Of a DNA stretch of 15,620 bases, positions 191 to 15,620 are shown in pieces. Each line of letters begins with the position of its first letter. Position 1 is the stretch's first letter. A program made the position numbers and the translations under genes. The notes beneath the pieces were generated by a model, which searched no databases, was not told the DNA's origin, and saw nothing but the letters and a program-made list of their open reading frames with translations. The DNA comes from Armatimonadota bacterium (GTDB lineage: Bacteria > Armatimonadota > Armatimonadia > Armatimonadales > Armatimonadaceae): assembly GCA_043754515.1 (NCBI GenBank), contig JAYUUO010000074.1:1-15620 (forward strand). The letters are read 5' to 3'.

Positions 191-819
191 GGGGGCGGTG
201 CCGCCTTTCCGGGCGGCGGTGGGATCGCACGCCTCGCGCGATAGTCGGCGTTCGCCCACGACGCGGCGGCGGACACCGTGCCGCCCGCAAGAAGGACGTA
301 AATCGCGGCGATATGGTAGACGAGAACCGCGACCGCGCTGGCGACGATGATCACGAAGCCGAGCGCGAACAGCACGCCGCCCTCGCGCCGGCTCTCCTCA
401 AGCGGCGGGCGGGTGATCGCGAGCGCTGTCGCGAGTCCCAGCCCGACCGACGCGGGTATGACGGCACTAACGGCCTGCTTCACCGCCGCCAAATCCCGAA
501 CTCGGGAATACAGGGCGGTCATCAGCACCGTGATCGCGACGCTGGGGAGTAGCATCCCCACGAGACACAGCCCGATGCCGCGCCAGCCGGCGATGCGCTT
601 GCCGAGCAGTACCGTGATCGCTATCAGGTTAATGCCGGGCGCGACCTGGCAGATGGCCCAGTCATGCGCGAACTGCTCGTCCGTCACCCAGCCGTTCCCG
701 TGTACCACGGCGCGTTGCATCAGCGCGAGCGTCGCCCCGCCGCCGCCGAACGATTGCACGGAAAGGAGTAGCCAGACGCGGAGCAGGTGGCGCGACGAGA
801 CGCGGGGAGGGGCGGTCAT
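187..819 (-). CDS. chrA: Short-chain chromate transporter (CHR/ChrA family), first subunit
   Basis: SFGGG motif, W(V)TDEQF..WAICQVAPG.N motif, LLPS, several hydrophobic helices. Confidence 0.88.
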   Translation of the reverse strand: MTAPPRVSSRHLLRVWLLLSVQSFGGGGATLALMQRAVVHGNGWVTDEQFAHDWAICQVAPGINLIAITVLLGKRIAGWRGIGLCLVGMLLPSVAITVLMTALYSRVRDLAAVKQAVSAVIPASVGLGLATALAITRPPLEESRREGGVLFALGFVIIVASAVAVLVYHIAAIYVLLAGGTVSAAASWANADYRARRAIPPPPGKAAPPP

Positions 820-827
820 GTCCGGGG

Positions 828-833
828 ATTATA
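828..833 (-). promoter_or_regulatory. -10 box (TATAAT) 8 nt upstream of the chrA ATG; probable leaderless or near-leaderless promoter
   Basis: Minus strand reads cggTATAATccccggacATG; no Shine-Dalgarno in between. Confidence 0.6.
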
Positions 834-893
834 CCGCGCGGGGGGTGACTGGCGGGTGTCCTTCCGGCGGGTTCCCCGCGCGCCCTCGGCGCA

Positions 894-1571
894 TCACGCC
901 AATTCGCCCAACTCGTCGCGCCACAGCAAGCGGTTTTCGCCCGCCTCATTCGCCTGCCATATCCGCCCCGTGGCGACGTCGAAGCAGGAGAGCCAACCCG
1001 TGCCACACGCCCACGTGTCAATACAGATCGTGTGCCCGAAGTCGAGCGGCACGCCATTCTTTTGCGACGTGTGCCCCACGACCACGGTCTTGCGGGAGAA
1101 GTGCGGGTCGGGGTTACGCAATTTCTCCCAGTACAAAATGCCGTCATGTTGCTCATCCATCGGCGTTTCGGCGTCCGCGCCCGCGTGGACGAAAATGTGC
1201 GTCGCGGTCTCGTGGAACGGGCGCGTGTCTTCGAGGAAACGCCAGTGGGAAGGGGGCACGGCGTCCAGCGACCCGTCGTAGGATGCGAGCGTGGCGTCGC
1301 CGCCGACCCGCTCCCATTGTCTGCGGTATACATCGCTTTCGGAGCGCGCCGCGAGCATCATGATGTCGTGATTGCCGCGCAACGGGATCAGCCGCGTCTC
1401 CTCCGCGAGCGCGATCAGCCGTTCGAGCACGCCGCGCGTGTTGGGTCCGCGATCCACGTAGTCGCCGAGCGTGATCACAGTGTCGCCCGCGTCCGGCTTA
1501 ACCAGGGCGAGTAGCGTTTCCAGAGCGGTCAGGCAACCGTGGATGTCGCCGATGGCGAGGGTGCGGTTCAC
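894..1571 (-). CDS. Calcineurin-like metallophosphoesterase, Ser/Thr protein phosphatase (PphA/lambda-PP type)
   Basis: Motifs GDIHG, GDYVDRG, RGNHD, FVHAG, VGHT, IDT. GTG start overlaps the thioesterase TGA. Confidence 0.92.
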   Translation of the reverse strand: MNRTLAIGDIHGCLTALETLLALVKPDAGDTVITLGDYVDRGPNTRGVLERLIALAEETRLIPLRGNHDIMMLAARSESDVYRRQWERVGGDATLASYDGSLDAVPPSHWRFLEDTRPFHETATHIFVHAGADAETPMDEQHDGILYWEKLRNPDPHFSRKTVVVGHTSQKNGVPLDFGHTICIDTWACGTGWLSCFDVATGRIWQANEAGENRLLWRDELGELA

Positions 1572-2038
1572 GTAGCGTCCGTTTCGGGGGCGGTAGCATC
1601 GCGGCGGGGTTCGGGGGTGAACGCGGCGAAGGCGGCGCGGAACGGTTCGGGGGCGCGCCGGGGCTTGTAGGTCGCGGCGTCTATGAACGCGCCTTTGGTT
1701 TCGGCGGTGGCGACGACGCGCCCGGTGGCCGCCTCGGTGAGGCGGTAGTCAATCCACGCGGAGGCGGGGCGCACGTCACGAAACCGGCCCCGAATTACGA
1801 TATGGTCGCCGTACCGCGCGGGCGATACGAAGCGGAGCCGCGCCTCGACGATCACGAGCTGCACATGGTGCGCGCCGAAGTCCGCGAATGACAAGCCCAT
1901 CTGCCGCAGATATTCGGAGCGGGCTTCTTCTAGATAGTGCAGGTACTCGGCATTGTTGACATGCCCGAACGAATCGAGTTCGTAGGTGCGAACCCGGACA
2001 CTGGCGTGGAGCGGGTATTCGTCGGGCATGGCGGTCAC
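1568..2038 (-). CDS. Acyl-CoA thioesterase, 4HBT/YbgC hot-dog family
   Basis: VRTYELDSFGHVNNAEYLHYLEEAR signature and F.SPARYGD. Start may be ATG at 2029. Confidence 0.9.
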   Translation of the reverse strand: MTAMPDEYPLHASVRVRTYELDSFGHVNNAEYLHYLEEARSEYLRQMGLSFADFGAHHVQLVIVEARLRFVSPARYGDHIVIRGRFRDVRPASAWIDYRLTEAATGRVVATAETKGAFIDAATYKPRRAPEPFRAAFAAFTPEPRRDATAPETDAT

Positions 2039-2067
2039 TACGGGGCGCGTCTAATGGCGTGGTTCGC

Positions 2068-2310
2068 CTACTTGTTGAAATAGTCCGTGTTGAGTTGGAT
2101 GAACCCTTTCCACTTGCCCGGAACTTCGTCCTCCATGAAGATCGCGTCCACGGGGCATTCCGGCTCGCACAGGCCGCAGTCAATGCACTCGGTGGGATTG
2201 ATGAAGAGTTGCGTGTCTCCGTCGCGGCCGTGGATGCAGTCAACAGGGCAGACAGCGACGCAGGACTTGTCTTTCACGCCGATACAGGGTTCGGCAATTA
2301 TATAGGGCAT
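2068..2310 (-). CDS. fdxA: Dicluster ferredoxin, 7Fe ([3Fe-4S]+[4Fe-4S]) type
   Basis: C-x7-C-x3-CP-x2-C followed by CIDCGLCEPECP; upstream AAGGAAG RBS-like sequence. Confidence 0.9.
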   Translation of the reverse strand: MPYIIAEPCIGVKDKSCVAVCPVDCIHGRDGDTQLFINPTECIDCGLCEPECPVDAIFMEDEVPGKWKGFIQLNTDYFNK

Positions 2311-2385
2311 AAGGGTGAAACGCTTCCTTGAAAAAAGTTCGTCGCGCCGCTCGCTGGACGATCAAACGGGCGATGGCGCAACCGC

Positions 2386-2415
2386 ATTATGCCACGCCTC
2401 CCGTGGTCCGCGCAA
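2386..2415 (-). promoter_or_regulatory. Putative sigma70-type promoter for the ferredoxin gene
   Basis: Minus strand TTGCGC-N18-CATAAT with TG extension, about 75 nt upstream of the ATG. Confidence 0.4.
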
Positions 2416-2488
2416 CCACGAAGCGGCGTTCGCCGGTGGGGAAGAGTGCCCGTAAACATACCTGATTTAACGATGCGCCGCGCAACTT

Positions 2489-2532
2489 TTGACGGGTCAC
2501 GCTTGACACGGGTACAATCCCCGGATTATACT
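2489..2532 (+). promoter_or_regulatory. Two overlapping sigma70-type promoters upstream of the NlpC/P60 gene
   Basis: TTGACG(2489-2494)-N18-TACAAT(2513-2518) and TTGACA(2503-2508)-N18-TATACT(2527-2532). Confidence 0.65.
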
Positions 2533-2673
2533 TGCCATGACGAACTCGGGCTGACACTTCGGCACCGCGTCTACCCAGGATGTTTACGACCCCGATCTTT
2601 CGGGAAAAATAATCGTTTTCATCACCGTATCCCCCGGTTTTCTTGCGAAGACCGTGAAAGGAAGTGACATAGT

Positions 2674-4005
2674 TTGACATTTCTACGTGTAGAGTTGTGT
2701 AGCCCGACCCGAGCGGCCGGAGTGTCCCGGCGGACCGTCACCCTGCGAGGCGCGATCGCCACCGTCGTTTTCGCCGCGCTCGCGGTGTTCTCCCTGTCCC
2801 TTGTCGCGCCGCTGGCCGCGATAGCCAAGGCTCCCAAGTCGCGCAAGGCTATCGTCCGCGCCGAAACCGTGCGCCTCCGTTCCTCCCCCGGCAAAAAAGG
2901 CAAGTTATCCGGCCTGCTCGATTCGGGCCGCGTCGCCCGAGTTTTGGGCAAGAAAAAAGGTTGGGTGCGTCTGAAACTCGCTTCGGGGACCACCGGCTGG
3001 GTGCGCGCCGATCTCCTCGCGATCAACAAAAAACAGACCAAAGACACGGGCGCCTTCGCCGCGCAACACCCCGTCGCGCCCTCCCGCCGCGTTCGCCGCG
3101 CCCGTCACTCCGAAGTATCGGTCGCGAAAGTCACGCGCCACAAGAAATCCCCGACCAGAGTTGCCACCCGCAAGGCTAAAGTCGCCGCGCACATGCCGGT
3201 GATGAAACCCCTCGCAGTGACGCATCCGACGCCGAAGCGGCGCGCGACTCCAACAGCCGTTGTGAAGCCGGTCCAGGTCGCCCGCGTCATCACCCGCCTC
3301 GCACCGCGCATCCAGACGATCTCCCGGCAGATAGCGACGCCCGACACTCAGGTCGAAGCGAAAATTACGGAAGGGTATGAGACCGCGACCCTGCGCGAGG
3401 GCGTTGACAGCCAGATGCTTGCGGATCTGCCCGCCGACGCCCCCCGCGTCGTAACAGGCGAGTTGAAGGCGTCGGTTCCGCCTCTCGTGACCGACGCGCC
3501 CGCTGTGGAAGTGAGCGTCGCTCCCGAAACAATCACCGCGTCCGTGCCCATCCCCAGGAGTCGGGCAATCAAGGGCGGCGTCGCGAAGGCGGTGCGCGTG
3601 CCCATCGAGCGCGCCTCGAAGCGCGGCGACCGGATCGTGAACCGCGCGCTGTCGTACCGTGGCGTCCCGTATCGCATGGGCGCGACCGGTCACGGCGCGT
3701 TCGACTGCTCCAGCTTCACACGGCACGTCCTGAGCCAGTCCGGCGAGAGCATGCCGCGCACCGCCGCCGAGCAGTACCGCAAGGGAATGCCGGTCACCAA
3801 AGAGGAGATGCGGGCGGGCGACCTAGTGTTCTTCAAGAACACATACAAGCACGGCGTCTCGCACGTCGGGATTTACATGGGCGACGGGAAGTTCATCCAC
3901 GCCTCCAGCCACGGCGGGGTTAAGACCAGTAGCCTTTCCGAGTCGTACTTCGTCCATCATTGGGCGGGGGCGCGTCGCCCGAATATCACGCTGGGTGGCG
4001 ATTAG
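2674..4005 (+). CDS. Secreted SH3b + NlpC/P60 (C40) peptidoglycan endopeptidase
   Basis: N-terminal hydrophobic signal segment; SH3b (VRLRSSPG...GWVRLKL..GTTGWVRADLL); basic/Pro-rich linker; C-terminal FDCSSF, AGDLVFF, SHVGIY, FIHAS (Cys-His-His). TTG start follows GAAAGGAAG; the exact start is uncertain. Confidence 0.92.
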   Translation: MTFLRVELCSPTRAAGVSRRTVTLRGAIATVVFAALAVFSLSLVAPLAAIAKAPKSRKAIVRAETVRLRSSPGKKGKLSGLLDSGRVARVLGKKKGWVRLKLASGTTGWVRADLLAINKKQTKDTGAFAAQHPVAPSRRVRRARHSEVSVAKVTRHKKSPTRVATRKAKVAAHMPVMKPLAVTHPTPKRRATPTAVVKPVQVARVITRLAPRIQTISRQIATPDTQVEAKITEGYETATLREGVDSQMLADLPADAPRVVTGELKASVPPLVTDAPAVEVSVAPETITASVPIPRSRAIKGGVAKAVRVPIERASKRGDRIVNRALSYRGVPYRMGATGHGAFDCSSFTRHVLSQSGESMPRTAAEQYRKGMPVTKEEMRAGDLVFFKNTYKHGVSHVGIYMGDGKFIHASSHGGVKTSSLSESYFVHHWAGARRPNITLGGD

Positions 4006-4012
4006 GTTGCTA

Positions 4013-4050
4013 TCCCCCGGATTTTCTACGTCTGGGGGAGTTGACTTTGC
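4013..4050 (+). terminator. Possible intrinsic terminator between convergent genes
   Basis: TCCCCCGGA(4013-4021)/TCTGGGGGA(4031-4039) 9-bp stem with one G-U, 7 nt after the stop; weak T tail. Confidence 0.4.
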
Positions 4051-4132
4051 GCATGGGACCTGGTGCCCGTGGCCCGCATCCCGGACGCCTGGAACCGTGG
4101 CGGCTGCCGGACGCACGTACGACGCGGACGCC

Positions 4133-5350
4133 CTACCCGCGATCCCCCAGCCCGCGCATCGTGAACACGCCCGCGTAGTGGCGGCGGATCGGGGCGATAT
4201 TTGCCATCGCCCAGACCAGAGCGCGGTACGGATGCCAGGGCGGGCACGGGCGTCCCAGCACCGTGTTCCGTTCCGCGCGGGCGAGCGCGGTCTTCGCGGG
4301 GCGCATCCGGGCGTTCTCGTACTGATAGGGCCAGATCGTGTGGCGTATGGCCTCCCGTGTTGGCTCGCTGACTTCCGTTTCTTTCGACTTTGATCCTCCG
4401 GCTAACAGGCGCGGCAGAACGGACGCGAGTTCGCCCGCGTCCAGGAAGCCGAGGTTCATTCCCTGCCCTCCTATCGGCGAGACTATGTGCGCGGCGTCCC
4501 CGGCGAGGAATAACCGCCCCTTGTAGAACGTGGACGCGAGCCAGTACTCGATCCCGAATGGCGACATCCAGACGCACGTCTCGACCGGGATCATAAATCC
4601 GGTACGGGCGTAAACCAGGGCAGCGAGGTCGCGGGCGTCGCTCGTTTCCGTTCGCTCCGGCAGACGTGCCACCCAGCGCCGCAACCCACCGGGGAGCGGG
4701 AACGATTCCACGATCCCGCCTCGGGTCACGAACAGCGCGGCGTCGGTGCCAAAAGGAGTGTCATCCGCGAAATCACCCATAAGGTAGCAGTCGGGGTACG
4801 TGCCGCCGACGAACGGGATGCCCGCCGACCGGCGCGACGCGCTGTTCTTGCCGTCGCACGCGACCACGTACCGCGCCGTGACAGAGCGCGTGCCGTGATC
4901 CGTCTCTACAGTCAGGGTCGCGTGGGTTTGGCCGTATTCCGAGCCGGTCGCGGTCGCGCCGCGCACCAGGGCAGCGGGGGCGAGTTCGCACAGCCGCCGC
5001 TCCAGCACCGCCTCGGTCACGGTCTGCGGCACGGACAAGACGAAGGGGAATATGGGGTCTACCACGCCGAGCGGGAGCCGCCCGGCTAGTTTCCTGTCCA
5101 GATACACCCGCCCGCCGGGGATACATACCCCGCGCCCGGTCAGTTCGCCCGCGACGCCCGCCGCTTCCAGCACGTGGAGCGCGGGCGGATGGATGCCGAT
5201 CGCGCGGGAGTGAACCGCGGGGGAGACCCGCCGCTCCAGCACCACGCAGTCCACGCCGCATAGCGTCAGGAGGCAGGCTAGTGTTAGCCCCACGGGTCCC
5301 CCGCCCACGATCACGACGTCGGCCTCGCGCGGCGGGTTTACAACTTCCAA
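4133..5350 (-). CDS. FAD-dependent monooxygenase/hydroxylase (FAD_binding_3, UbiH/PheA-like)
   Basis: VVIVGGGPVGL Rossmann motif, VVACDG..S..R, FLAGDAAHIVSPIGGQGMNLGFLDA. Confidence 0.92.
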   Translation of the reverse strand: MEVVNPPREADVVIVGGGPVGLTLACLLTLCGVDCVVLERRVSPAVHSRAIGIHPPALHVLEAAGVAGELTGRGVCIPGGRVYLDRKLAGRLPLGVVDPIFPFVLSVPQTVTEAVLERRLCELAPAALVRGATATGSEYGQTHATLTVETDHGTRSVTARYVVACDGKNSASRRSAGIPFVGGTYPDCYLMGDFADDTPFGTDAALFVTRGGIVESFPLPGGLRRWVARLPERTETSDARDLAALVYARTGFMIPVETCVWMSPFGIEYWLASTFYKGRLFLAGDAAHIVSPIGGQGMNLGFLDAGELASVLPRLLAGGSKSKETEVSEPTREAIRHTIWPYQYENARMRPAKTALARAERNTVLGRPCPPWHPYRALVWAMANIAPIRRHYAGVFTMRGLGDRG

Positions 5351-5357
5351 AGAGAAC

Positions 5358-6047
5358 TCACGTTTCCCATATCAGTTGCAGGCGGAACGGGAAGGTGACG
5401 CGGACGTGCCACCCCCGCGGTGCAAGCCGCGCCAGTTCTCCCGGCGTGAAGGCGCGGCGGATCGAGATTAACCCGTCCGGCAAAATGAGCGAGTCGCGGA
5501 ACCAGCCGCCGATCAGCGGGAAACCGGCGTAGGCGAGCGGGTGCCGGTGAATATCGGCGTGCAACACGAGTCGGGACGCGAGTTCGCCGGACGTCTCGCA
5601 GAGAGTGACGACTTCGGCATCGCTCAGATGGTGCAGGAGATGGTTCGAGATCACGATGTCGAACCGCTCCCCGGCATCCGCGAGTTGCCGAGCGGGCGCA
5701 CACGCGAAGCGCACGTTCGGCGGTTGCGGCAGACTCCGCGCATAGGCAATGGCGCGATCGTCCGTATCGGCCCCGACGAAGCAGGACGTCAGGCCGTCGC
5801 GCCGCGCATAGCCCGCAAGCCGCCGCAACACGTCCCCGCCCCCGCAACCGATGTCCAGTAGTGACGCGCCGGGACCCGCCGCGCGTAGTACCGGGCGCAG
5901 ATACCGCGTGTACAGCCCGCGCCAGCCGCTCACGAGATGGTTCACGCGGTCGAAGTCGCGGTACGTGTTGCATAGCACGGACGCGTCGCACAAGGAGTCG
6001 TCCATGATCTCCGCGCTGTCTGTCGCCCGCGTTTTTAGCACCGTCAT
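5358..6047 (-). CDS. Class I SAM-dependent methyltransferase (229 aa)
   Basis: Start re-called at ATG 6047 (MTVLKTRATDSAEIMDD), 8 nt after the PKS stop; the longer track ORF overlaps the PKS. Motifs LLDIGCGGGD, FDIVISNHLLHHL, DGLISIRRAFT. Confidence 0.88.
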   Translation of the reverse strand: MTVLKTRATDSAEIMDDSLCDASVLCNTYRDFDRVNHLVSGWRGLYTRYLRPVLRAAGPGASLLDIGCGGGDVLRRLAGYARRDGLTSCFVGADTDDRAIAYARSLPQPPNVRFACAPARQLADAGERFDIVISNHLLHHLSDAEVVTLCETSGELASRLVLHADIHRHPLAYAGFPLIGGWFRDSLILPDGLISIRRAFTPGELARLAPRGWHVRVTFPFRLQLIWET

Positions 6048-6055
6048 TCGCGCGG

Positions 6056-7168
6056 CTATGCCTTCCGCATCACGGCGGTCTCCACGGTCAGGCCGGGGCC
6101 GAACGCCATCGCGACGACCGGATCGCCCGCCCCCGTCAGCGTCCCGGCGCGGAGCATTTCCGCTAGCACGAATAGAATAGTCGCCGAACTCATGTTGCCG
6201 TAATCCCGTAGCACGCGCCGGGAGGCGGTGAGTGACGTTTCGCATAGGTCGAGCGCGGACCGCACCTTGTCCAGGATCGCCCGCCCGCCGGGGTGTACCG
6301 CCCAGTGTGCCACGTCCTGGGCGCGTAAGCCGGAACCCCCGAGCGTCGGCACCAGCGCGTCCCCGATGTTCGCCCGCAGGATCTCCGGGACGTACGACGA
6401 CAGGCGCATGGCGAACCCATTGTCGCCAATCGTCCACGCCATGTCCGACTCGCCGGTCGGGGTCAGTGTCGTATCGAACCGCTCCAGGATCAGGGCGGGT
6501 TTACCGCCGCTTGGCTCACGCGCCGATACCACCGCCGCCGCCGCGCCGTCCGCGAACACCGAGCCGCCCAATATCGCGTCCGTGTCGCCGTCGAAGCGCA
6601 GGTGGAGCGAGCAAAGTTCGAGGCAGACGACGAGTACCACGGCGCGGGGGTCATTCTCGCAGATGGTCTTTGCTAGCCGTAGTGCCGGGAACGCCGCGTA
6701 GCATCCCATAAACCCCAGGTGAAAGCGCGGCACGCTCGGCGGCAGGTTCAGCGTGCGCACCAGATGGTAGTCCAGCCCCGGCTGAAAGAAGCCGGTGCAG
6801 GACGCGGTGATGACGTGCGTCACGTCGGGCGCGTCGAAGCCATCCGCGTTTTCGAAGGCGCGGCACGCGACCTCGGCACCCAGGCGGCGCGCCTCGGTAG
6901 TGTAGAGCGCGTTCCGCTCGCCTGTAGTGGGGTTGCGCAACGTGTCGGTCGCTCCGTCATAGAAGATGCCGCCCGCCGCGCCGGGCAGGAAGTCGGGAAC
7001 CGCGCTATGCCGCGTTTCTATGCCCGACTGGCTGTACAGGTAGGAGCGTACCCGCTCCTGTTTGCGGTCTCCGCCCGCCGAGAACCGCTTCATGGCTTCG
7101 GCGATGAAGGGTTGCGGGTAGGCGGTAGGCGGAACGGCGGTCTCGATGTGATGAAGGTAGACGGGCAT
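6056..7168 (-). CDS. Type III polyketide synthase (chalcone/stilbene synthase family)
   Basis: Catalytic triad in context: MGCYAA (Cys), VHPGG (His), YGNMSS (Asn); also SCTG, ELCSLH, FADGAAA, AFGPGLTVE. Confidence 0.95.
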   Translation of the reverse strand: MPVYLHHIETAVPPTAYPQPFIAEAMKRFSAGGDRKQERVRSYLYSQSGIETRHSAVPDFLPGAAGGIFYDGATDTLRNPTTGERNALYTTEARRLGAEVACRAFENADGFDAPDVTHVITASCTGFFQPGLDYHLVRTLNLPPSVPRFHLGFMGCYAAFPALRLAKTICENDPRAVVLVVCLELCSLHLRFDGDTDAILGGSVFADGAAAAVVSAREPSGGKPALILERFDTTLTPTGESDMAWTIGDNGFAMRLSSYVPEILRANIGDALVPTLGGSGLRAQDVAHWAVHPGGRAILDKVRSALDLCETSLTASRRVLRDYGNMSSATILFVLAEMLRAGTLTGAGDPVVAMAFGPGLTVETAVMRKA

Positions 7169-7253
7169 AAAAGGCGCGTGGTGCCGTTCCTTTCGACCGC
7201 ACCCGCGTCCCGTGTATATACCCGATCATGGCTCGGTTTGGAACATGGGTCGG

Positions 7254-8801
7254 TTAGCCCAAAGTGCGCACGCCCATAACCGGTAAACCGTTGGGAGCCG
7301 CGCCCGCGCCGTTCCCGTTCCCGCTCGCCATGATCGCCGAGACGGACTTCACCATCTCCTCAATGTCGGCGTACTTCTCGTCGGAGTCGTCGTAGAGCCA
7401 TTCGTTCAGCGCGTCCACGTCCACGTCGCCCCGGTCACGCTCCCAGAGTTTGCGAGCGATGCCGCGCTCGCACTTGGCGATCAGTTCGTCGGCGTTGTGG
7501 ATGTCGGCTTGAAGCGACGTGCGCCGATCCCAGAGTTGCTTGCCCTCGTCGCCGTCCGAGCGGTCGAAGAAGAAGCACCACGTATAGAACAGATGGTACA
7601 CCGTGCTGTTGATGCTCTCCCACGGCACGGACGGGCGGTTCTCCTCGAACCAGAGGTGTAGTCGGTCTTTGGCTTCCTTGAGCGAGATGTCATTACTCGC
7701 AGGGTCGGCGAATAGATCGTACATCACGCGGATGATCTGGTGCCGTTCCGCCGACGGCACATAGCGGAAGTTGTTATCGCGGAGCCAGAGCCGGAGCCGC
7801 TCGCCGGAAGTCATCTGGCTCGGCGTCGCGGTCGTGTACACCTGCGTCGAGGCGTACGGCGCGTAGGGCTGCGGGGATGATGACGGGGCGAACGGTTGCG
7901 TCTGCTGGGCCGGGGTGGGCGCGGACGCCGGGGTTGACGCGAACAGCGGCGGGCGCGTCGGCATCGGCCCGGCGTTGCCGTCGGGGCGTTGTTGCGCGTG
8001 CGCCGCACCGTTCCCATTCGATTGTCCCTGGCCCGGCGGTGTCGTGTTCGCCTCCATGCCACCTTCGAGTCGGCCCTTGGGTGCCACCGTCACGTCCCCG
8101 ATGGCGGGCTTATGCAGATCAATCAGGTCGCCGTGCGAGCGTAGGAACTCCAGGAACGACGTGTGCCCTGAGCGGGTTTCGTCGAACATCGGGTCAATCT
8201 TGCGCATCGTGGTCTTGAGCGCGGAGCCGGGCACGGGGCGGTTGCCGAGTGCGGCAAGCCCTTTAGCGAGCAGGGCGACCGGGTCCATCGGTGTCACCGG
8301 GATCGAGCGTTCGGGCAGGACCTCGCTGTTCGCGCCGTGCAGATCGTCGTAGTAGCAGAAGCGGTCGCAGGCTTTGGCGAGGTAGGTCGAGGTGTTGGAG
8401 CGCACGCCGACCCCGACCACATACCGCCCGGTCTCGCGCAGTTTCAGTACCAGTGGGGTGAAGTCCGAGTCGCCGGAAACCAGCGCGACGTGCGTGATGT
8501 CGGACTGGCGGAGCGCGACGTCCATCACGTCAATCGCGATCTTGATGTCGGCCCCATTCTTGCCTTTGTAAGTCAGGGAGAAAGTCTGAATCGGGTCGCA
8601 AGCGTTGTCGAGTAAGTCGGAGCGGTAGTCCTTAAAGACGCCCCAGTCTGCATACGCCCGCTTCAAAACGATTCGCCCCTCGGTGACTTTGCCGATCTCC
8701 TCGAAGATGCGCCGTAGCTCCACCCGCTCATTCACAAAGTAGTCGTCAACCGCCCGCTTAATGTTTTCGAAATCAACGAATACCGCCACTCTATTTTCCA
8801 T
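7254..8801 (-). CDS. NYN (LabA/DUF88, PIN-like) domain protein with OST-HTH/LOTUS-like domain and extra C-terminal domain
   Basis: VFVDFENI, KNGADIKIAID, LVSGDSDFTPL, LAKACDRF..YDDL; then LKTTMRKIDPMFDETRSGHTSFLEFL (LOTUS-like); Pro/Gln/Thr linker; globular C-terminus. Confidence 0.88.
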   Translation of the reverse strand: MENRVAVFVDFENIKRAVDDYFVNERVELRRIFEEIGKVTEGRIVLKRAYADWGVFKDYRSDLLDNACDPIQTFSLTYKGKNGADIKIAIDVMDVALRQSDITHVALVSGDSDFTPLVLKLRETGRYVVGVGVRSNTSTYLAKACDRFCYYDDLHGANSEVLPERSIPVTPMDPVALLAKGLAALGNRPVPGSALKTTMRKIDPMFDETRSGHTSFLEFLRSHGDLIDLHKPAIGDVTVAPKGRLEGGMEANTTPPGQGQSNGNGAAHAQQRPDGNAGPMPTRPPLFASTPASAPTPAQQTQPFAPSSSPQPYAPYASTQVYTTATPSQMTSGERLRLWLRDNNFRYVPSAERHQIIRVMYDLFADPASNDISLKEAKDRLHLWFEENRPSVPWESINSTVYHLFYTWCFFFDRSDGDEGKQLWDRRTSLQADIHNADELIAKCERGIARKLWERDRGDVDVDALNEWLYDDSDEKYADIEEMVKSVSAIMASGNGNGAGAAPNGLPVMGVRTLG

Positions 8802-9013
8802 ACTATATGCTTTCTAAACCGAAATAAATGCCGCTAGACCGTCGCGAGCCTCCCGAAATATAGTCCCCCGCCGCCCGTGCCGCTGTATCGGGGATGGGGT
8901 GAGGAGAGTAATACCGCCCGCGCGGGGGATCGGGTACGATCCTTTAACGTGCCGCCTTGATAGTAGCGGTTGTATAGATCCGCCGTTCTTTATAATATCA
9001 CCCGAGGCGCGTG

Positions 9014-9062
9014 CGGCGCGGGGGGCGGAACCCGCGTGACCACGGCGCGGGGCGGAACCGCG
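9014..9062 (+). repeat. Imperfect GC-rich direct repeat, 2 copies
   Basis: CGGCGCGGGGGGCGGAACCCGCG (9014-9036) and CGGCGCGGGGCGGAACCGCG (9043-9062). Confidence 0.6.
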
Positions 9063-9133
9063 AATATGTTTGCGCCGTCATGGTCGCATTATTCGCGCCT
9101 CTTTACCGTGAAGCACGGCACGGCGGGGCGGTT

Positions 9134-9364
9134 CTACGCAGCCGAATCGTTATAGGGCAACAGTTTGTCGGCGTAAAAGCCGCGTGATTCTATCGCGCAA
9201 CCGAAGGAGTCCACGAACGCGACCTCGAACGCACCGTCCGCGAGCCGGTCAACAATGGTTCCGGTTTGACCGACGCGGAGCGGCGTCCCTGGCACGTCCC
9301 TCGCGAGACGTACCACGTCGTAGAGTTTGAAAGCGGTTTGTGTGTCGGTTCGTTCGGCTACCAT
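9134..9364 (-). CDS. DUF4926-like small protein (candidate immunity/antitoxin)
   Basis: FKLYDVVRLARDVP...L..GQTGTIVD...GAFEVAF.D..G matches the DUF4926 pattern as recalled; overlaps the upstream gene by 7 nt. Confidence 0.75.
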   Translation of the reverse strand: MVAERTDTQTAFKLYDVVRLARDVPGTPLRVGQTGTIVDRLADGAFEVAFVDSFGCAIESRGFYADKLLPYNDSAA

Positions 9365-9702
9365 AGCTTGATGTACGCGCTCGTCAGACGCGGCGTTTCC
9401 TCTCCCGTATCAATGATCCACGCCGACGTAACCTCCGTGGTGTTGCCGTTGACCCCCGTCATCAAAAACCGGATCTCGTAGCGTTTGCCGTGCGCATCCT
9501 CAGTGCGGGGTTCTGCCTCGCCGGTTCGGGCGGCTGTCAACAAGGCGTCGCGTAATAGGTCAGCGTGTTCGACAGTGATTCCTAAAAACGAGCGGAAAAC
9601 ACGCGATTTAGGCCCTCCGTGTGAATGGTCGGGGTTTAAGCGGTAGGCGGTTAGTTTCGACGGGTCAACCGTTGCCCGATCGCCGTTCGGTAACTGCGCC
9701 AT
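9358..9702 (-). CDS. DUF6883-like protein (candidate toxin/nuclease domain)
   Basis: LPN..RA.VD..KL..Y.LNPDH..G..K.RVF...LG.T...A..L..AL ... G.RY ... SAWI.......PRLTSAY matches the DUF6883 pattern as recalled. Confidence 0.75.
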   Translation of the reverse strand: MAQLPNGDRATVDPSKLTAYRLNPDHSHGGPKSRVFRSFLGITVEHADLLRDALLTAARTGEAEPRTEDAHGKRYEIRFLMTGVNGNTTEVTSAWIIDTGEETPRLTSAYIKLW

Positions 9703-9729
9703 AAGCGTACGCGCGTTGCACCATCACGG

Positions 9730-9735
9730 TACAAT
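9730..9735 (+). promoter_or_regulatory. -10 box (TACAAT) 7 nt upstream of ATG 9743; probable leaderless promoter
   Basis: cggTACAATacggggcATG. Confidence 0.55.
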
Positions 9736-9742
9736 ACGGGGC

Positions 9743-10408
9743 ATGGAACCGCCCCCCGACGAGCAAGCCGAACGCGACCCGCCCGCGATGAAACCAGGCG
9801 CGGCCCGCGCGAAGCGCAGCTTCTCCGGCCTGTCGCTCAAAGAGGCTTTACGGTGCGTGGGGCTGTCCGACGTCACCGCGTGGCGAATCGCCGCCGACCC
9901 GCGCCCACCCAGCGCGTTTTTGAGCGAGGCACTAACCCGGTTCGACGCCTTCAGCCTGACGAACTCCGAGGCGGCGAAGCTACTTTTAATTGACATCCTG
10001 TTCACCGAAACCCTGCCACAGTTCCCAGGCTTGCGGGCGTGGAAGGGCGAACCCCTCGACAGCGACGCGCTAACCGGCGTCGCGGACCTGCTGATCGCGC
10101 CGAAACGCGCCTTCATGGAAACGCCGCTTTTATGTGCCGTGGAGGCAAAGAAGGATGATTTTGATCAAGGCCGGGCGCAGTGCATAGGCGAGATGGCAGC
10201 GTGCCGGGCGGTCAACGAGCGCGACGGTCACCGACTTGATGTGTACGGCGCGGTGAGCAACGGGCAGACGTGGCAGTTTTACCGGCTCGAATACGCCGGG
10301 GCGATCCATGAAACCGGCGCGTACACCCTGCAATTCCTGCCCGAACTGCTCGCCGCCCTGTTCCACGTCTGCGCCGCGTGTGAACATAACCTGCCGCATA
10401 CCCCTTAG
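9743..10408 (+). CDS. Hypothetical protein, restriction-endonuclease-like PD-(D/E)XK fold (HsdR N-terminal-like)
   Basis: GVADLLIA...LLCAVEAKKDDFDQGRAQCIGEMAA...VYGAVSNGQTWQFYRL. Start re-called from TTG 9716 to in-frame ATG 9743. The TAG stop coincides with the IS630 end. Confidence 0.7.
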   Translation: MEPPPDEQAERDPPAMKPGAARAKRSFSGLSLKEALRCVGLSDVTAWRIAADPRPPSAFLSEALTRFDAFSLTNSEAAKLLLIDILFTETLPQFPGLRAWKGEPLDSDALTGVADLLIAPKRAFMETPLLCAVEAKKDDFDQGRAQCIGEMAACRAVNERDGHRLDVYGAVSNGQTWQFYRLEYAGAIHETGAYTLQFLPELLAALFHVCAACEHNLPHTP

Positions 10409-10608
10409 TGTGCCATCCTGTTGGAAATTAGACATTTGCCGCCCCTTCTTGTTGCAACTCCGGGTACAACCGGTGCAGTTTGACCCGAGCATCACGGGTC
10501 GTGAACTGCCCGTTCACCTTGCCTTGCAGTTTGTTGCGGGCGATCTCCCAGGCACTCACCTCCGCGTCAATATCCGCTTTGCTGATCCGCCGGTTCAAGC
10601 ATTGCCTC

Positions 10609-10631
10609 TGCGTCAAAAGCCGCTTTTGACT
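10609..10631 (+). repeat. Palindromic insert A (23 nt)
   Basis: TGC GTCAAAAGC C GCTTTTGAC T; removal restores SVMARQCL. Confidence 0.85.
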
Positions 10632-10709
10632 GCCATCACCGACACTTCGATCTCGGCGATATTGAGCCACGAGCCGTGCTCCGGCGTATAGTGGAACTCG
10701 AATCGGTTC

Positions 10710-10736
10710 AGTCGAAAACCGCCGCCGTTTGTCGGG
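10710..10736 (-). repeat. Imperfect palindromic insert B (27 nt, in frame)
   Basis: Minus strand CCCGACAAACGGCGGCGGTTTTCGACT; removal restores EACRLMNRFEFHYTP. Confidence 0.7.
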
Positions 10737-10801
10737 ATCAGACGGCACGCTTCCGCGGGATCGAAAGCCATATACAAGGACCACGCCTTGTGTGTGTTCA
10801 T

Positions 10802-10827
10802 AATTTTTTCGCCGCGAAAAGAATCGC
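10802..10827 (-). repeat. Palindromic insert C (26 nt)
   Basis: Minus strand GCGATTCTTTTCGC G GCGAAAAAATT; removal restores VLDNMNTH. Confidence 0.85.
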
Positions 10828-10869
10828 ATTGTCCAGCACGATCACGATCTTGTCCGCGTCGGGACATTC

Positions 10870-10892
10870 AGGCGAAACGCAGTTCCGCCGCA
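10870..10892 (-). repeat. Palindromic insert D (23 nt)
   Basis: Minus strand TGC GGCGGAAC TGC GTTTCGCC T; removal restores RVSNEECPDADKI. Confidence 0.8.
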
Positions 10893-11008
10893 CTCGTTGG
10901 AGACGCGCCTCAGGAAATGGGCGAAGTCGACACGGGTACGCCGCTCCGTCACTTCTACCATGCGGCGGCCGGCGAGCGGTTCCACTCCCAGGAACAGATT
11001 CGCGGCAC

Positions 11009-11037
11009 CAGAGAAATCGCCGGGGCGATTTTCCCGA
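11009..11037 (+). repeat. Palindromic insert E (29 nt; 30-mer family, loop 1 nt shorter)
   Basis: CAGAGAAATCGCC GG GGCGATTTTCCCGA; removal restores DYEYVREGAANLF. Confidence 0.9.
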
Positions 11038-11198
11038 CCTCGCGCACGTACTCGTAATCCTCGCGCTTAGCTTGACCCGCCCCGGCGGGTAACCACTCCC
11101 GCGACGCGCTGCGCAGTTCCTTCTTGCCTTCATCCACGCAGACCGCCGGCCGCTTCGCGTCGTATGGCAGTTCGTACACACCCAGGACGTCCTCCATC

Positions 11199-11228
11199 CA
11201 GAGAAATCGCCACAGGCGATTTTCTTGC
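11199..11228 (+). repeat. Palindromic insert F (30 nt, in frame)
   Basis: CAGAGAAATCGCC ACA GGCGATTTTCTTGC; removal restores YVA(K/R)MEDVL. Confidence 0.9.
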
Positions 11229-11276
11229 TTGGCGACATACTGCGGCGAGGCGGTTCCGATGCAGAACCTCTCTACC

Positions 11277-11306
11277 CAGAGGAATCGCCGGGGGCGATTC
11301 TCTCGA
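11277..11306 (+). repeat. Palindromic insert G (30 nt, in frame)
   Basis: CAGAGGAATCGCC GGG GGCGATTCTCTCGA; removal restores IKPW(K/R)VERFCI. Confidence 0.9.
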
Positions 11307-11324
11307 TTCCAAGGCTTGATCGCG

Positions 11325-11332
11325 TTTTTTTT
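11325..11332 (-). promoter_or_regulatory. Slippery A8 site, probable programmed -1 frameshift joining IS630 orfA and orfB
   Basis: CTA AAA AAA ACG; a -1 shift gives LKKNAIKPW, the usual junction in this IS630 group. Confidence 0.8.
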
Positions 11333-12089
11333 AGCCGGGCGCAGACCGCCGAGTCGCTGATACTGTCCACCAGTTTGAGCTCCACTAATTTGTCGGCGAG
11401 GAGTTGCATCGTCCAGCTCGCCCGGCCTACGGGAGGCGTAGAGCAGGCAAGGAGAGTCAGCTGGGCTTCGACCGCCCCCGTGATCTTCGGTGTTTTCCCC
11501 GGTCGTGGTTTCTCAGACAAAGCCGACTCGATCCTCACTTGAACAAAAGCGCGACAGATGCGGCTGATCGTCGGACGCGAAACCAGAAGCGATTGTGCGA
11601 TTTGTTCTTGTGTCTCAGGTTTGTCTTGACTCTTATCGGCTAAGAGTAGGATGCGGGCGCGATTCGGGACGCGGGCAGAGGCATTGCCTTTGCGCATGAA
11701 ATCGAGCAGGTAGTGACGGGCTTCCGGTGATAAAGTGACGGCAAGATATTGGCTCATGCATTCATTCTCGAATTGATAAGCATATTACTGGATGCTTCAC
11801 TTAGCCTTTCAGTTCATAGCCTTCGGATTGCTTAACAAGGCGGTAATCCGGATAAGCATTGCGGGCAGGCGCATCAAAATTAATATTCGCTTTATTCAAA
11901 CGAGCTCCAAACCAGTTTTGGAAATGGAATTCTTTGTGAATACCACTCGCCGATGATAGTGTCGCGGTGAATGACGAGGACTGCGTCCGCCCCGGTGTCG
12001 CGGCAAAGCCGCTCGTAGTCGCGGACCGCTTTCCTGTTTATCCCGGCCATTTCGGGAGAGGTTGCCACTGTAGCGGGGTTCGCTACCTT

Positions 12090-12894
12090 TCAGCGTGTGT
12101 CCACGGTGGGCGGCAGATATGCGGGACGCGGCGGAGCGATGTGAGTGAGGTGTAATCTCCTTCGCATATCGTCGAAATCAGCGGAGCGAACTATGCTCTG
12201 TTTGTCCGTCAATACTCTAGAGATCCGTTCGGACGCGTCCAGTGCCGCCCGCACTAGCGCCATCTTTTTCTCGTGCATGCTGGTGTGGAAGATCCCGATC
12301 AGCCCGTACATCTTCCCTTCGGCACTGTTGAAGCCGGGAATCATCGGGGTATTTACAAGCGAACTGGAAGTGCTTTCTACCGTTTCATATTGCCGCGTAC
12401 GTATCGCGTGCTTCAACGCGTTTATAGTCCCCGAAGCTAGCGGTCATGTGCTTCCCCTGACGGGACGGGAAGGACTGAGAGAAGTGGTTGCACAGGTAAT
12501 TGATCGCGAGCACCCTGGTGAGGTAAATGTCTTTAGACGCAGTAGTTCCCTCCTTATAGACACGGTAGAACTTGCGAGCCTCCCGCCACCGGCCCCGCTT
12601 CTGTGCTATTTCGCTGAGCAGATAGACGACGCTCATATAGATTCCCAGAAATTTCTCGTCGGCCCGTCTTGCCAGCGGGAGCAATGCTTATAGTGTTCGC
12701 CGCGCGGCTAGCCACTTGCCTTCTCGGGCCATCCGGCGCGACGCGGCGACCTTGTTGAGTATGTTTTTCTCGGACGCGCTCTGAGTCAGTATAGTTTGTG
12801 CTTCAGCGGGTAGTGGCACTGTCAGCGCGACAGCCATCAGGGCGATCATGGCGTAATACATGGAGATAGGTGGCATACTTGGTGCTTCTCTCAC
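12090..12894 (-). pseudogene. Probable pseudogene of a secreted alpha-helical (TPR-like) protein
   Basis: Signal-peptide-like start (YAMIALMAVALTVPLPAEA); ORFs 12688-12894 and 12385-12684 are in the same frame, separated by one TAA; ORF 12090-12416 continues in another frame. Lower GC than the flanking genes. Confidence 0.4.
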
Positions 12895-13114
12895 AGTGGA
12901 ATCGAGGCACCATGAATGCGACCAGCGTGCGCCGCCCGAACCCCGTCCGCCGATATATTACACGATGCGAATGCGGGTTTTGCCCGGTCAGCATACTTTT
13001 TGTTTTTGTCTACGTTGCCGCTGTGTTATCGTGTATCAGCCCCATTTACTTGACCGGCGCGACGACAGCGGCGTGCGCGGCGGAACGGAGGGCGCGAAAG
13101 GCGAGGGATGCGAC

Positions 13115-13264
13115 ATGGCGACGAGACCGGAAGGACTAGAACCAGGAGAGCAGAAGCTATCGAAGCCGCCGAAGCCGAAGGTATTCAAAGGCGTCTGCAT
13201 CCGCCGTGGGTCCAGTTCGATCCAGATGCGCGGCACCTGCTCGCGGATAGGTTGCGAGCGATAG
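13115..13264 (+). CDS. Possible small protein (49 aa), basic with three Cys
   Basis: GAGGGA upstream of ATG; MATRPEGLEPGEQKLSKPPKPKVFKGVCIRRGSSSIQMRGTCSRIGCER. No family recognised. Confidence 0.25.
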   Translation: MATRPEGLEPGEQKLSKPPKPKVFKGVCIRRGSSSIQMRGTCSRIGCER

Positions 13265-13347
13265 GCGCACAGGAACGCAGTCCTTGACCTGGTGGGCTTA
13301 AGGAAAGAAGAATTTCCTAGTTATCGTTGTATGGGTCACGGACATAT

Positions 13348-13376
13348 CCCCTCTCCGGGATGGAGAGGGGGTGAGG
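13348..13376 (-). terminator. GC-rich hairpin downstream of rpsT (terminator or REP-like palindrome)
   Basis: CCCCTCTCC(13348-13356)-N5-GGAGAGGGG(13362-13370) perfect 9-bp stem, about 45 nt past the rpsT stop; no clear U tract. Confidence 0.45.
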
Positions 13377-13415
13377 TTCCGGGGCGGTCAGGCGGATGAG
13401 GTCGCGCGCAAGACC

Positions 13416-13703
13416 CTAGTCCGCGGCGGGCGTCGCGGCGAGCAACACTACGTTGGCACGGCGCATCAGGCGGGACTTGCGGCGTGCGGCGGCGTTCTTA
13501 TGGATAATGCCGCGCTTCGCGGTCTTGTCGAGAACGCTCACGACCTTCGAGAGGGCGGGCGTGATCACCGCAACGTCCGCGCCTGCGATGGCGACATTCG
13601 CCTTTTTGATGTATGTGCGCATCATGGACTTCGCCGCGCGGTTGCGCAGGTTGCGCACACGGGAGCGCAGGACATCTTTTTTAACCGACTTGATATTTGG
13701 CAC
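13416..13703 (-). CDS. rpsT: 30S ribosomal protein S20
   Basis: MPNIKSVKK...RN.RN.A.KS.MRTYIKK...LDKTAKRGIIHKNAAARRKSRL; GTG start with AAGGAAG upstream. Confidence 0.97.
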   Translation of the reverse strand: MPNIKSVKKDVLRSRVRNLRNRAAKSMMRTYIKKANVAIAGADVAVITPALSKVVSVLDKTAKRGIIHKNAAARRKSRLMRRANVVLLAATPAAD

Positions 13704-13751
13704 TGTTCTTATTCTTCCTTGGGATTCCGCCGGTTCCCGGCGAATCGTCTG

Positions 13752-14336
13752 TTACTTCTTGGGGGCGTCGCTCGCCTTGGGACTGTCGCTCGTGCTAGGC
13801 ACCCCACCGCTTCTACCGGGACCGCCGCTCATCAGAGCGGGGATCAGTCCTTGCTCCGGCGGGAGTGTCCCGTTCGGCCCGAGTGGAACCCGTAGCGTAC
13901 CGTCCACCGACACGCCGGGCTTTGTAGCACCGCCCGGCTTGGCATCGAGATTGACCGCGTCTATTTCGGCGGTCGGCATCACCTTTTTGATCGTTTCCAC
14001 CGCAGTGTAGATAGAGGAGGAATTGCCCTGTATCGCCGGCGTCCACTGCCACGCGACCACGATCTTCGGCTTGCCGCCAGGCTTGCCGAACGACTTCATG
14101 CCCCCCCAACTCGCTACCTCGTTCGCGCCGGGCGACGTTTCGCCGCTCTGCGTCGGCGGCGGGTTGTTCTTCGCGTTCGCCGCGTTCTTTTTCGCTTGCT
14201 CGCGTTCCTGCTCTTTGCTGACCTTCTCGCGGATGACGGGGTCGTTGTTCTGCTGCATGATATTCAGCCCCAGCAACGCGCCCGCGGCGCAGACGGCGAC
14301 CACGATCAGCGGCAAATTGTTCGGTTTTTGTGCCAT
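13752..14336 (-). CDS. Hypothetical membrane-anchored/exported protein
   Basis: N-terminal hydrophobic segment (LPLIVVAVCAAGALLGLNI), charged linker, small globular region, Gly/Pro tail; co-oriented with rpsT; GC-rich third positions. Confidence 0.7.
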   Translation of the reverse strand: MAQKPNNLPLIVVAVCAAGALLGLNIMQQNNDPVIREKVSKEQEREQAKKNAANAKNNPPPTQSGETSPGANEVASWGGMKSFGKPGGKPKIVVAWQWTPAIQGNSSSIYTAVETIKKVMPTAEIDAVNLDAKPGGATKPGVSVDGTLRVPLGPNGTLPPEQGLIPALMSGGPGRSGGVPSTSDSPKASDAPKK

Positions 14337-14340
14337 ATTC

Positions 14341-14730
14341 TTACGAATCTCGCTTCTCGGCGGTCAGTAGCCCCAGGGTCTCTGTGTTGCCGTGCGACGC
14401 CGCGAGCACCCGATCGCGGACCGACTCGGGAGACACGCCAGACGCCGCGAACGCGTCGCGCAGGAACAGTTGCCGGTCGGGGGCGAGTAGCAAGTCCAGC
14501 GTTGAGATGCCCAGTGCCTCCGACAGCGCGGCGAGGGCGGGCGCGATGGTGTGTATCTCGCTCTCGGCACGGGCGCGTAGCATCCCCCGCGCGAGTTGCA
14601 ACTCCTTGATAGCCTGCTCGACCGGCGCGACAAGGATGCGATATTCGCTCATCTTGTCGAGCACCACGGTCGCCGCGCCGTCCTGGGGGTCGCCCTCTAT
14701 ATCCATGCCGTTCTGATCCTCTGGTGTCAC
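14341..14730 (-). CDS. Hypothetical helical protein
   Basis: Protein-like composition; ends 4 nt before the next ATG. Start is GTG 14730 or ATG 14706 (AGAGGA upstream). Confidence 0.7.
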   Translation of the reverse strand: MTPEDQNGMDIEGDPQDGAATVVLDKMSEYRILVAPVEQAIKELQLARGMLRARAESEIHTIAPALAALSEALGISTLDLLLAPDRQLFLRDAFAASGVSPESVRDRVLAASHGNTETLGLLTAEKRDS

Positions 14731-14767
14731 ACAAAGCCGACGGCGTCCTGGGGGACGCCATCGGGCA

Positions 14768-14776
14768 GTATAGCAC
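14768..14776 (-). promoter_or_regulatory. Extended -10 promoter (TG-n-TATACT) for the hypothetical-hypothetical-rpsT cluster
   Basis: Minus strand gTGcTATACTgccc, followed by a hairpin CGATGGCGTCC-CCCA-GGACGCCGTCG (about 14738-14763). Confidence 0.5.
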
Positions 14777-15079
14777 GCTCCGTGGGTGTGTGCAAGGGCG
14801 CGGCGTGTCCAGCGGCTGTTACTTCAGGGTGCCCACCGTCGGGCAAGTGATTGTCTCCTGCCCATCGGCTGATTTCCATTGCCGTGACAATTCACTGAGG
14901 CAACGGCTCACGCTCGACGAAATGGGAAACGCCATGTTTCGCGAGATAATACTGTAAGCCTCGTTCCGCGACATCGAACAACACCTCCGCCATCTCCCAC
15001 TCGGTCCACTGCTCGCGCCTGAATGTAGAAACTACCGCGATTGAATTTGCCCTGATCACCTGTGTTCATGACACACGTC

Positions 15080-15620
15080 TTATTTAACCGAGGACTGGTC
15101 ATAATTCAAGCCGCTCTTACGGAACGGTTTTAACCCGCGACTGGTCGGCAGACCGAGTTCATGCCTCGCCCATAAGCCCAGTTCATAAACCAGTATCGCA
15201 CCTGAAACAAATCGGCTCGTTGCCATCTTTCCTTTTGTCGGCACATCACAATGACTATCAAAGATCGAATTGAAATGCTCATTGAAGTTTTCGATCCCCT
15301 TCGAGACCTCCTTACCCGCGTCGGCGTGCGGACATTTCCCCCCGCGTGTTGCCACAAGTTCCATGCCGCGTAGGTGACAAGCCGCCTCCTTCTCCTCGGT
15401 CCGGTAATGCTGATCCCCTAAAACGAAGCGAGCGCCCGTCGGCACTTCGGAAACCATCTCCTGACCCACCTTACCGTCATACACATTAGCGGCAGTCAAT
15501 CGTGCCGAGAGCGCAATCCAGGCATCTCCTACCGTTGCCGCCACGTGAAGTTTCCACCCATAAACCCATCCGTTCGATGAAAACGTGTTTTCATCTGTCC
15601 AACCCCTCTTCGTCCACCCT
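15080..15620 (-). mobile_element. 3' part of a degenerate DDE transposase (IS982/IS4-like), runs off the window
   Basis: GWVYGWKLHV, RLTAANVYD, FVLGDQHY, IENFNEHF. Appears to lack a few residues before IENFNE, and probably has a 1-nt slip before a native TGA at 15106-15108. Confidence 0.75.
15575..15598 (-). repeat. Palindromic insert H (24 nt, in frame) in the second transposase
   Basis: Minus strand ACA GATGAAAAC AC GTTTTCATC G, perfect 9-bp arms; removal gives GWTKRGW(N/T)GWVYGWKLH. Confidence 0.75.

Follow-up and report, generated by a model that had tools for sequence, protein, structure and literature searches.

The window analysed here is the whole of a 15,620-nucleotide stretch (positions 1 to 15,620) of contig JAYUUO010000074.1 from an Armatimonadota bacterium (GCA_043754515.1), and it contains an IS630-family element whose transposase gene is interrupted by seven short inserts, A to G (Table 1). 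IS630 elements are characterized by TA flanks, terminal inverted repeats and a -1 slippery run of A, and, as read from the sequence, the window element has all three, with TA at 10406-10407 and 11802-11803, imperfect terminal inverted repeats and a -1 A run that recurs in identical form in four related copies (L021, L010, L011 and L013). Its HTH and DDE transposase, with homology end to end, agrees with membership of the family; model NF033545 matched the N-terminal ORF with an E value of 9e-17, a match that lies under the whole-protein cut-off. Apart from a 60-nt, 90% match to the left part of the element on contig C171, no further copy of this IS630 was found in the genome. The neighbouring DNA, window positions 9134-9702 (minus strand) and 9716-10408 (plus strand), holds genes for DUF4926 and DUF6883 proteins and a 230-residue ORF without a Pfam match, which has seven paralogues in the genome and whose stop codon abuts the IS630 end. 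A strain of run X5 has an 18-nt insertion at window position 9166, which is not a hairpin of the CAG...YG family described below.

Table 1. Features of the window, with positions counted from its first nucleotide
Feature	Position	Strand	Description
IS630-family element	10408..11801	-	Ends approximate, terminal inverted repeats imperfect; read from sequence
IS630 transposase pseudogene	10428..11757	-	380 aa without inserts; HTH part, then DDE part
Insert A	10610..10632	-	23 nt, CAG...CGC, 8-bp stem; frameshifting
Insert B	10709..10735	+	27 nt, CAG...CGG, stem decayed; in frame
Insert C	10802..10827	+	26 nt, left end atypical (no CAG); frameshifting
Insert D	10869..10891	+	23 nt, CAG...CGC; frameshifting
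Insert E	11009..11037	+	29 nt, 30-mer subfamily; frameshifting
Insert F	11199..11228	+	30 nt, 30-mer subfamily; in frame
Insert G	11277..11306	+	30 nt, 30-mer subfamily, compensatory stem change; in frame
A8 slippery run	11325..11332	-	-1 frameshift between two ORFs
Eighth family member	15574..15597	-	24 nt, perfect 8-bp stem; near contig end, outside IS630

A sequence-only reading of this DNA had described the transposase gene as broken by seven tiny hairpin insertions. When aligned with an intact IS630 copy of the same genus (L021) and with four more distant copies (L011, L012, L013 and L014), all seven segments were indeed clean gaps of the lengths it gave; the alignment with L009 spans inserts A-D only. 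Its coordinates hold for C, E, F and G, whereas A, B and D each move by one base once the fixed ends of the family are applied. Inserts A, B, C, F and G are not assembly errors, because they are bridged by contigs from three other studies (X5 10525-10782 for A and B, X5 11064-11282 for F, X8 10617-10887 for B and C, and X6 11183-11381 for G); among the matches listed, D and E are bridged only by X1, possibly the source run. The claim that each segment is an inverted repeat is upheld for the five of the seven that fold better than mononucleotide shuffles (p<0.05), but D folds weakly (z -1.5) and the value for B (z 0.2) lacks significance. Relatives of B were found at C127:5473 and C138:35897, and the stem motif of C was found at 10 further places in the genome. 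All seven inserts lie in the DDE part of the gene (10428-11310) and none in the 420-nt HTH part (11333-11757), with a binomial p of 0.052. Insert E is the first of the four frame-breaking inserts (A, C, D and E) in reading order, and the lengths of B, F and G are multiples of three.

Once the seven segments are deleted, 1142 nt remain; given the -1 shift at A8, their translation contains VDE, LDN and AEIE and continues up to the stop codon, so that the catalytic motifs are kept as had been claimed. At the boundaries first assigned, removal does restore a full ORF; at the family boundaries, the base at the junction of insert D, which matches neither end, leaves a TAA stop codon, and the implied intact gene beneath the inserts was therefore only partly right. 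The statement that no other lesion is needed stands for frameshifts, of which we found no other in the IS630, but the conserved W of the C-terminal WQFT motif is now G. The copy thus shows some decay besides the inserts and, with this W replaced and the TAA left at D, is dead on more than one account. Because removal of D at the family boundaries leaves a stop codon, the inserts are best read as lesions and not as removable introns.

A family of short hairpins with CAG and YG ends

The commonest flanks of perfect A/T-tract hairpins in the genome are CAG and CGA. Scanning for CAG-hairpin-YGN produced 147 matches; at a stricter score there were 116 CAG-led hairpins, where six control trimers gave 10-33. 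A search with 99 seeds and three to four mismatches allowed then yielded 207 copies against one for the reversed seeds; the seed set left out 22 of the 147 scan matches, several of them in housekeeping ORFs, that were judged by eye to be chance hairpins, and it included 15 seeds added from alignments, the seeds being drawn partly from IS-borne copies. Three of the 207 matches were dropped to give a set of 204 copies, and 176 copies were collapsed to 115 independent sites. A CAG start is present in 169 of the 204 and a YG end in 188, figures that arise partly from the construction of the seeds. Lengths run from 21 to 33 nt, with 22, 30, 24 and 27 the commonest; 138 of the 204 are of 21-27 nt and the remainder of 28-33 nt. 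The layout is N1-CAG-(stem-loop with an A/T tract)-YG-N2, in which the end bases N1 and N2 are variable, with A at N2 in 59% of the 115 sites.

Stem sequences vary widely yet stay paired. In 14 24-mers, 95.7% of cells pair (0 of 500 shuffles) and four of ten pairs change on both sides, although these rows were picked as hairpins and so illustrate variety under pairing and are not an independent test of it. Loops are frequently inverted between copies, copies are nested up to three deep, and both orientations occur within one gene. No Rfam family matched the elements in four sources (59.6 kb), the single match being to one tRNA. The seven inserts are genuine copies of a 21-33-nt hairpin family of about 200 copies, and the class of very small mobile palindromic elements proposed from the window alone is borne out by this number of dispersed copies, by filled and empty alleles, by nesting and by compensatory stems. 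Further clean gaps of 22-30 nt were present in IS3-like, IS701-like, another IS and Rpn genes (G000 and G002). A second type of small insert, a 20-nt unit with nested forms of 40-43 nt, was seen in Rpn/DUF4351 genes (G000 C238:6678-7200 and C202; L193 and L198) at sites common to two paralogues.

Copies crowd into IS, prophage, RHS and Rpn genes and repeat DNA. The dense contigs are prophages and IS remnants (Pfam sample of 100 of 195 ORFs), and the flanking frames belong to IS630, IS3, IS4/5, IS21, RHS and ParB or are unassigned (64 of 80 flank frames sampled), with one LacI-type gene end abutting a copy. The interiors of strong host-like ORFs, which make up 52.5% of the genome, hold 12 of the 204 copies, all 12 on prophage, IS or RHS stretches, a count that is blind to host genes already broken since an insert breaks the ORF. 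A neighbour lies within 1 kb for 112 copies, compared with 15 at random. A copy lies within 400 bp of 11 of the 20 transposase loci that four Pfam models identified (four of these share one site), compared with 5.4% of random stretches outside strong ORFs, and four IS families, chosen because they carry copies, hold 3-4 copies per kb against 0.08 per kb outside strong ORFs. Thirty-five copies represent one insertion amplified inside a REP-like composite (about 35 loci, e.g. G000 C119:5509), which contains two nested family members and has been amplified as a unit. Elements of frame-shifting length lie in long open prophage ORFs (G000 C143:2447, C99:3734 and C87:9285), which implies compensating changes and selection to keep the frame. 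Neither the flank-frame Pfam check nor the strong-ORF check found a copy in a housekeeping ORF; purifying selection would exclude the elements from host genes.

Of 121 genomes in the phylum, two exact patterns were each present in G000 and in one other genome only, G003 or G002; a third pattern matched three times in G002, was absent from G000 and had two stray matches. The 30-mer, with three mismatches allowed, has 30, 9, 1 and 1 copies in the four genomes of the genus and one stray in the other 67 of the order, and sister genomes carry inserts of their own in the same IS630. All four genomes of the genus carry the family, which is hardly seen beyond it. An exact-pattern scan of GTDB genomes returned at least 98 stretches, with single matches, many not complementary and many from one Rhodobacteraceae stretch; among the matches listed were two exact copies in one named Armatimonadota record. 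Exact-pattern scans of viral sequences gave 0 and 5 stretches. Within the assembly (92.7% complete, 313 contigs), one CRISPR spacer (G000 C61:2303) holds the CAG end of the 30-mer element and other spacers match C87, C172 and C260, contigs that carry copies, so that invaders probably carry the elements.

Junctions, target site and shared sites

In 36 of 45 distinct comparisons of filled and empty sites, exactly one target base lay between the flanks, the empty alleles being paralogues or relatives and not true pre-insertion alleles. This base matched neither end base of the element at 22 of the 36 junctions, one at 11 and both at 3; the 61% matching neither can be compared with the approximately 56% expected if the element brings both end bases and the target base is lost. 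The 33 best-matched comparisons included 28 one-base junctions, with 18 matching neither end. Nine of the 45 depart from the one-base rule (0, 2 or 3 bases), sometimes by 1-2 bases or with microhomology, and two of the 45 lose no base. We found no target duplication at the insertions, and no polymorphic empty allele or insert-free joint was listed in contigs of four runs. These junctions indicate that one target base pair is replaced by the element.

The 115 independent sites share the target C-N-R-N-x-N-Y-N-G, a palindrome centred on the lost base, with C at -4 in 58, R at -2 in 93, Y at +2 in 85 and G at +4 in 58 (chi-square p from 1e-5 to 3e-14 for these positions). The motif is weak, with a leave-one-out median percentile of 11%, and the seven IS630 sites rank from 18 to 345 of 1128. 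No guide-like pairing between element and flank was detected (45-241 of 300 shuffles reach the observed value), there was no pre-existing hairpin at empty sites, where folding was below that of controls, and elements showed no similarity to their own flanks. Subfamily and target are loosely associated, the 30-mer subfamily occupying 31 unrelated sites with no long consensus, and flank sharing among closely related cores (3.79 compared with 3.55 of 12) is too weak an effect to use.

The same site is nevertheless occupied by the same subfamily in diverged paralogues. The IS3-like copies C1 and C153 have three sites in common, L010 (genome G002) has a member of insert G's subfamily at the G site of the window, which in L021 is empty, and RHS, Rpn and other IS630-type paralogues behave likewise. 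Synonymous divergence between these carriers is saturated (0.80 for C1 and C153, 0.86 for the window and L010), yet their element cores are identical or nearly so, and no single tree fits the presence patterns in the IS3 set, as read from the alignment; neutral descent from a single dead ancestor therefore fails. Such reuse points to recurrent or homology-guided copying. The excess of flank identity over the overall identity of a pair was 0.127 between carriers (16 pairs) and 0.029 between carrier and empty copies (54 pairs), figures in which the pairs are non-independent, one carrier pair in fact joins two distinct sites, and neither the G site nor one of the IS3 sites is counted. We read this pattern as homology-guided copying, although longer sequence-specific targeting could also produce it. 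Copies C153 and C251 have frameshifting inserts in common and yet differ by a pS of 0.08 and a pN of 0.018 (about 6 and 4 changes), a pattern closer to that of a gene with residual function than to that of a dead duplicate; codon positions, compared between close paralogues, were for the most part uninformative.

Possible mechanisms

Overall, the window IS630 and many other IS copies were probably killed by non-autonomous, ultra-small mobile hairpins, the explanation that best accounts for the observations. We give about equal weight to acceptance and rejection of a trans-acting, probably dimeric nuclease/strand-transferase that inserts a folded single-stranded DNA hairpin in place of one base. 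Such an enzyme would recognize the folded hairpin by its shape and its CAG/YG foot, make cuts flanking a single target base (leaving a 1-nt gap or a 1-nt 3' stagger) and join the hairpin in its place, after which replication would fix the insert and the target base would be lost. We lean slightly towards the idea that an insert, once present, is also copied, in a homing-like manner and by way of short homology in its flanks, to the empty homologous site in diverged paralogues; copying of this kind would explain both the multi-copy-family hosts and the pairing of same site with same subfamily. The boldest version, in which a hairpin-for-one-base-pair DNA-writing chemistry followed by homing silences IS elements and prophages across the genus, and falls outside DDE, Y1, serine and tyrosine transposition in their described forms, seems to us rather unlikely.

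Screens for a mobiliser linked to the elements found none among Y1 transposases, reverse transcriptases, tyrosine and serine recombinases, IS110, Ku and autonomous parents. No autonomous element with the same ends was found in the assembly, 92.7% complete and in 313 contigs, a half-element search giving only nested copies and chance pairs among the matches listed; IS110 was absent from G000 and Ku from five genomes. The recombinase matches of G000 comprise 14 tyrosine and 7 serine enzymes. Copies showed no telling arrangement around the tyrosine, reverse transcriptase or Y1 matches, and no integron integrase scored above the cut-off among three tyrosine recombinases tested. A multi-copy tyrosine recombinase family is present at G000 C259:4263, C149:7962, C51:32503 and C122:6793, with two members beside a large serine recombinase.

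Targeted mutagenesis of mobile elements, in which a system of the host or of a phage would deliberately place hairpins in IS and prophage DNA under guidance that matches subfamily to site, is improbable, though not negligibly so. The density of copies in the carrier-selected IS families, their frequency at transposase loci and the filling of one site by one subfamily in saturated paralogues would all suit such a system, but the 30-mer subfamily at its 31 unrelated sites and the lack of complementarity between element and flank do not, nine of the 20 transposase loci have no copy, REP-like repeats, RHS, Rpn and the elements themselves are also filled, and neither a guide array nor an enzyme was found. 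We assign a similarly small likelihood to RNA-mediated copying, in which reverse transcripts of short hairpin RNAs would be joined by template switching and the end bases, which vary, would be non-templated additions. Variation at N1 and N2 with the preponderance of A at N2, and the junctions that are off by 1-2 bases or use microhomology, are consistent with this, and the genome does encode a retron-like reverse transcriptase (C263:17469-18881) and another that is DGR-like or group-II-like (C197:29307-30928), the latter preceded by a small Avd-like ORF, which we take to suggest a DGR. Neither enzyme has a copy nearby, however, the stems have few G-U pairs (4 of 140 cells), none of the four sources matched an Rfam family, and the symmetric target with its mostly exact one-base loss is better suited to a dimeric cutter.

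Movement of the hairpins as REP-like units by a Y1 (RAYT or IS200-type) HUH transposase, with NCAG as a GTAG-like foot, is less probable again. Y1 chemistry produces seamless joints at a fixed 2-5-nt target, in contrast to the symmetric site with a lost base seen here. The candidate is a Y1/IS200-like gene (L023, G000 C71:14139-14624) whose protein keeps H-L-H (HUH) and Y-x-x-x-Q in five of five aligned orthologues; it is solitary, lies directly after trpB, has a single strong orthologue in 14 genomes of the family, occurs also in genera without the elements and looks domesticated. None of the four Y1 matches is flanked by copies, and the copies are intragenic singlets and not extragenic doublets, although in length and imperfect palindromy they fit the REP sizes (20-60 bp) given in the available part of PMC3116915.

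We think it highly unlikely that the hairpins are removable micro-introns or ribosome-bypass elements, excised, spliced or hopped over in genes that stay functional. Sites at conserved motifs and common to divergent copies, the pN below pS between the insert-bearing C153 and C251 and the window IS630 without another frameshift would accord with this, but both orientations occur in one gene, removal at the family ends produces the stop at D and missense scars elsewhere, other riddled copies have stops and deletions, no copy was found in a housekeeping ORF, and no insert-free joint was present among the DNA contigs listed. Finally, local errors of replication that duplicate neighbouring sequence in inverted form, or artefacts of assembly, which have nothing in their favour except that the inserts are short and palindromic, are refuted by the 207 copies against one control, the same cores at dozens of unrelated sites and in sister genomes, the lack of flank similarity and the five inserts in independent contigs of three other studies, and the likelihood we leave them is vanishingly small.

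Relation to known small repeats

The nearest printed kind is the small dispersed repeats (SDRs) of Nostoc, a parallel that the sequence-only reading had aptly drawn, and the Armatimonadota family is SDR-like, its junctions and target leaving a signature that is unusually clear. Elhai et al. (2008, Genome Res 18:1484) reportedly described SDR1-8 from Nostoc and relatives. SDRs are about 21-27 nt long and show a conserved hairpin with compensatory changes, nested copies and host repeats as targets; the present family resembles them in its hairpin with compensatory changes, its nesting and its use of host repeats as targets. In the available parts of the sources, SDRs are confined to Nostocaceae (PMC5861425), SDR5 is 21 nt long (PMC13756078), and SDRs are of low-twenties length, dispersed and mobile without a known enzyme (PMC5861425, PMC13756078), features to which our family corresponds, as it does in keeping to a single lineage. 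It differs in belonging to one non-cyanobacterial genus of Armatimonadota, whereas SDRs, as far as those parts go, belong to Nostocaceae; in having fixed CAG...YG ends over 21-33-nt stems; in replacing one base at the degenerate symmetric C-N-R-N-x-N-Y-N-G, where SDR5 inserts in HIP1; and in loading transposase genes heavily. A search of 50 kb of Nostoc plasmid gave no informative copy, and the SDR comparison is by description and not by sequence.

REPs are described in the available part of PMC3116915 as 20-60-bp imperfect palindromes present in hundreds per genome and moved in trans by RAYT. The likeness to REPs and REPINs in size, palindromy, number and movement in trans holds against that partial description, but the present copies are intragenic singlets in mobile DNA with no doublets and no flanking RAYT, and they insert into REP-like composites of the same genome. 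With MITEs and Rickettsia palindromic elements (RPEs) the family has in common, as far as the sources at hand describe them, that it is non-coding, palindromic, multi-copy and able to enter coding sequence. It lacks, however, the direct repeats of MITEs, and no parent IS was found; RPEs, according to the available part of PMC10969869, are about 150 bp, in frame and in metabolic genes, whereas the present family is about a fifth of that length, mostly frame-breaking and not seen in metabolic genes, so that the RPE parallel also offered by the earlier reading is a weak one. Membership of either group, REP/REPIN or MITE/RPE, fails on defining features. Homing introns and inteins reuse conserved sites in homologous genes, and mitochondrial byps are small hairpin inserts in coding DNA; both habits recur here, but without an encoded endonuclease or evidence of removal, and the family is not seen in essential genes. 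We found no description of a CAG...YG family or of one-base replacement in the literature, where subscription papers, including Elhai 2008, may bear on novelty.

How elements of 20-30 nt move has been an open question since SDRs were described. The present family constrains the enzyme sharply, through fixed ends, free stem sequence, replacement of one base pair, a symmetric target and apparent copying between paralogues, and these constraints are directly convertible to an oligonucleotide assay; an enzyme that places a structured oligonucleotide for one base would also be of interest as a tool. For the organism, the hairpins represent a route for the mass killing of IS elements and prophages in one lineage, with up to seven inserts per 700 nt, and the hairpin-for-base chemistry, if true, would supply the missing mechanism for SDR-type elements.
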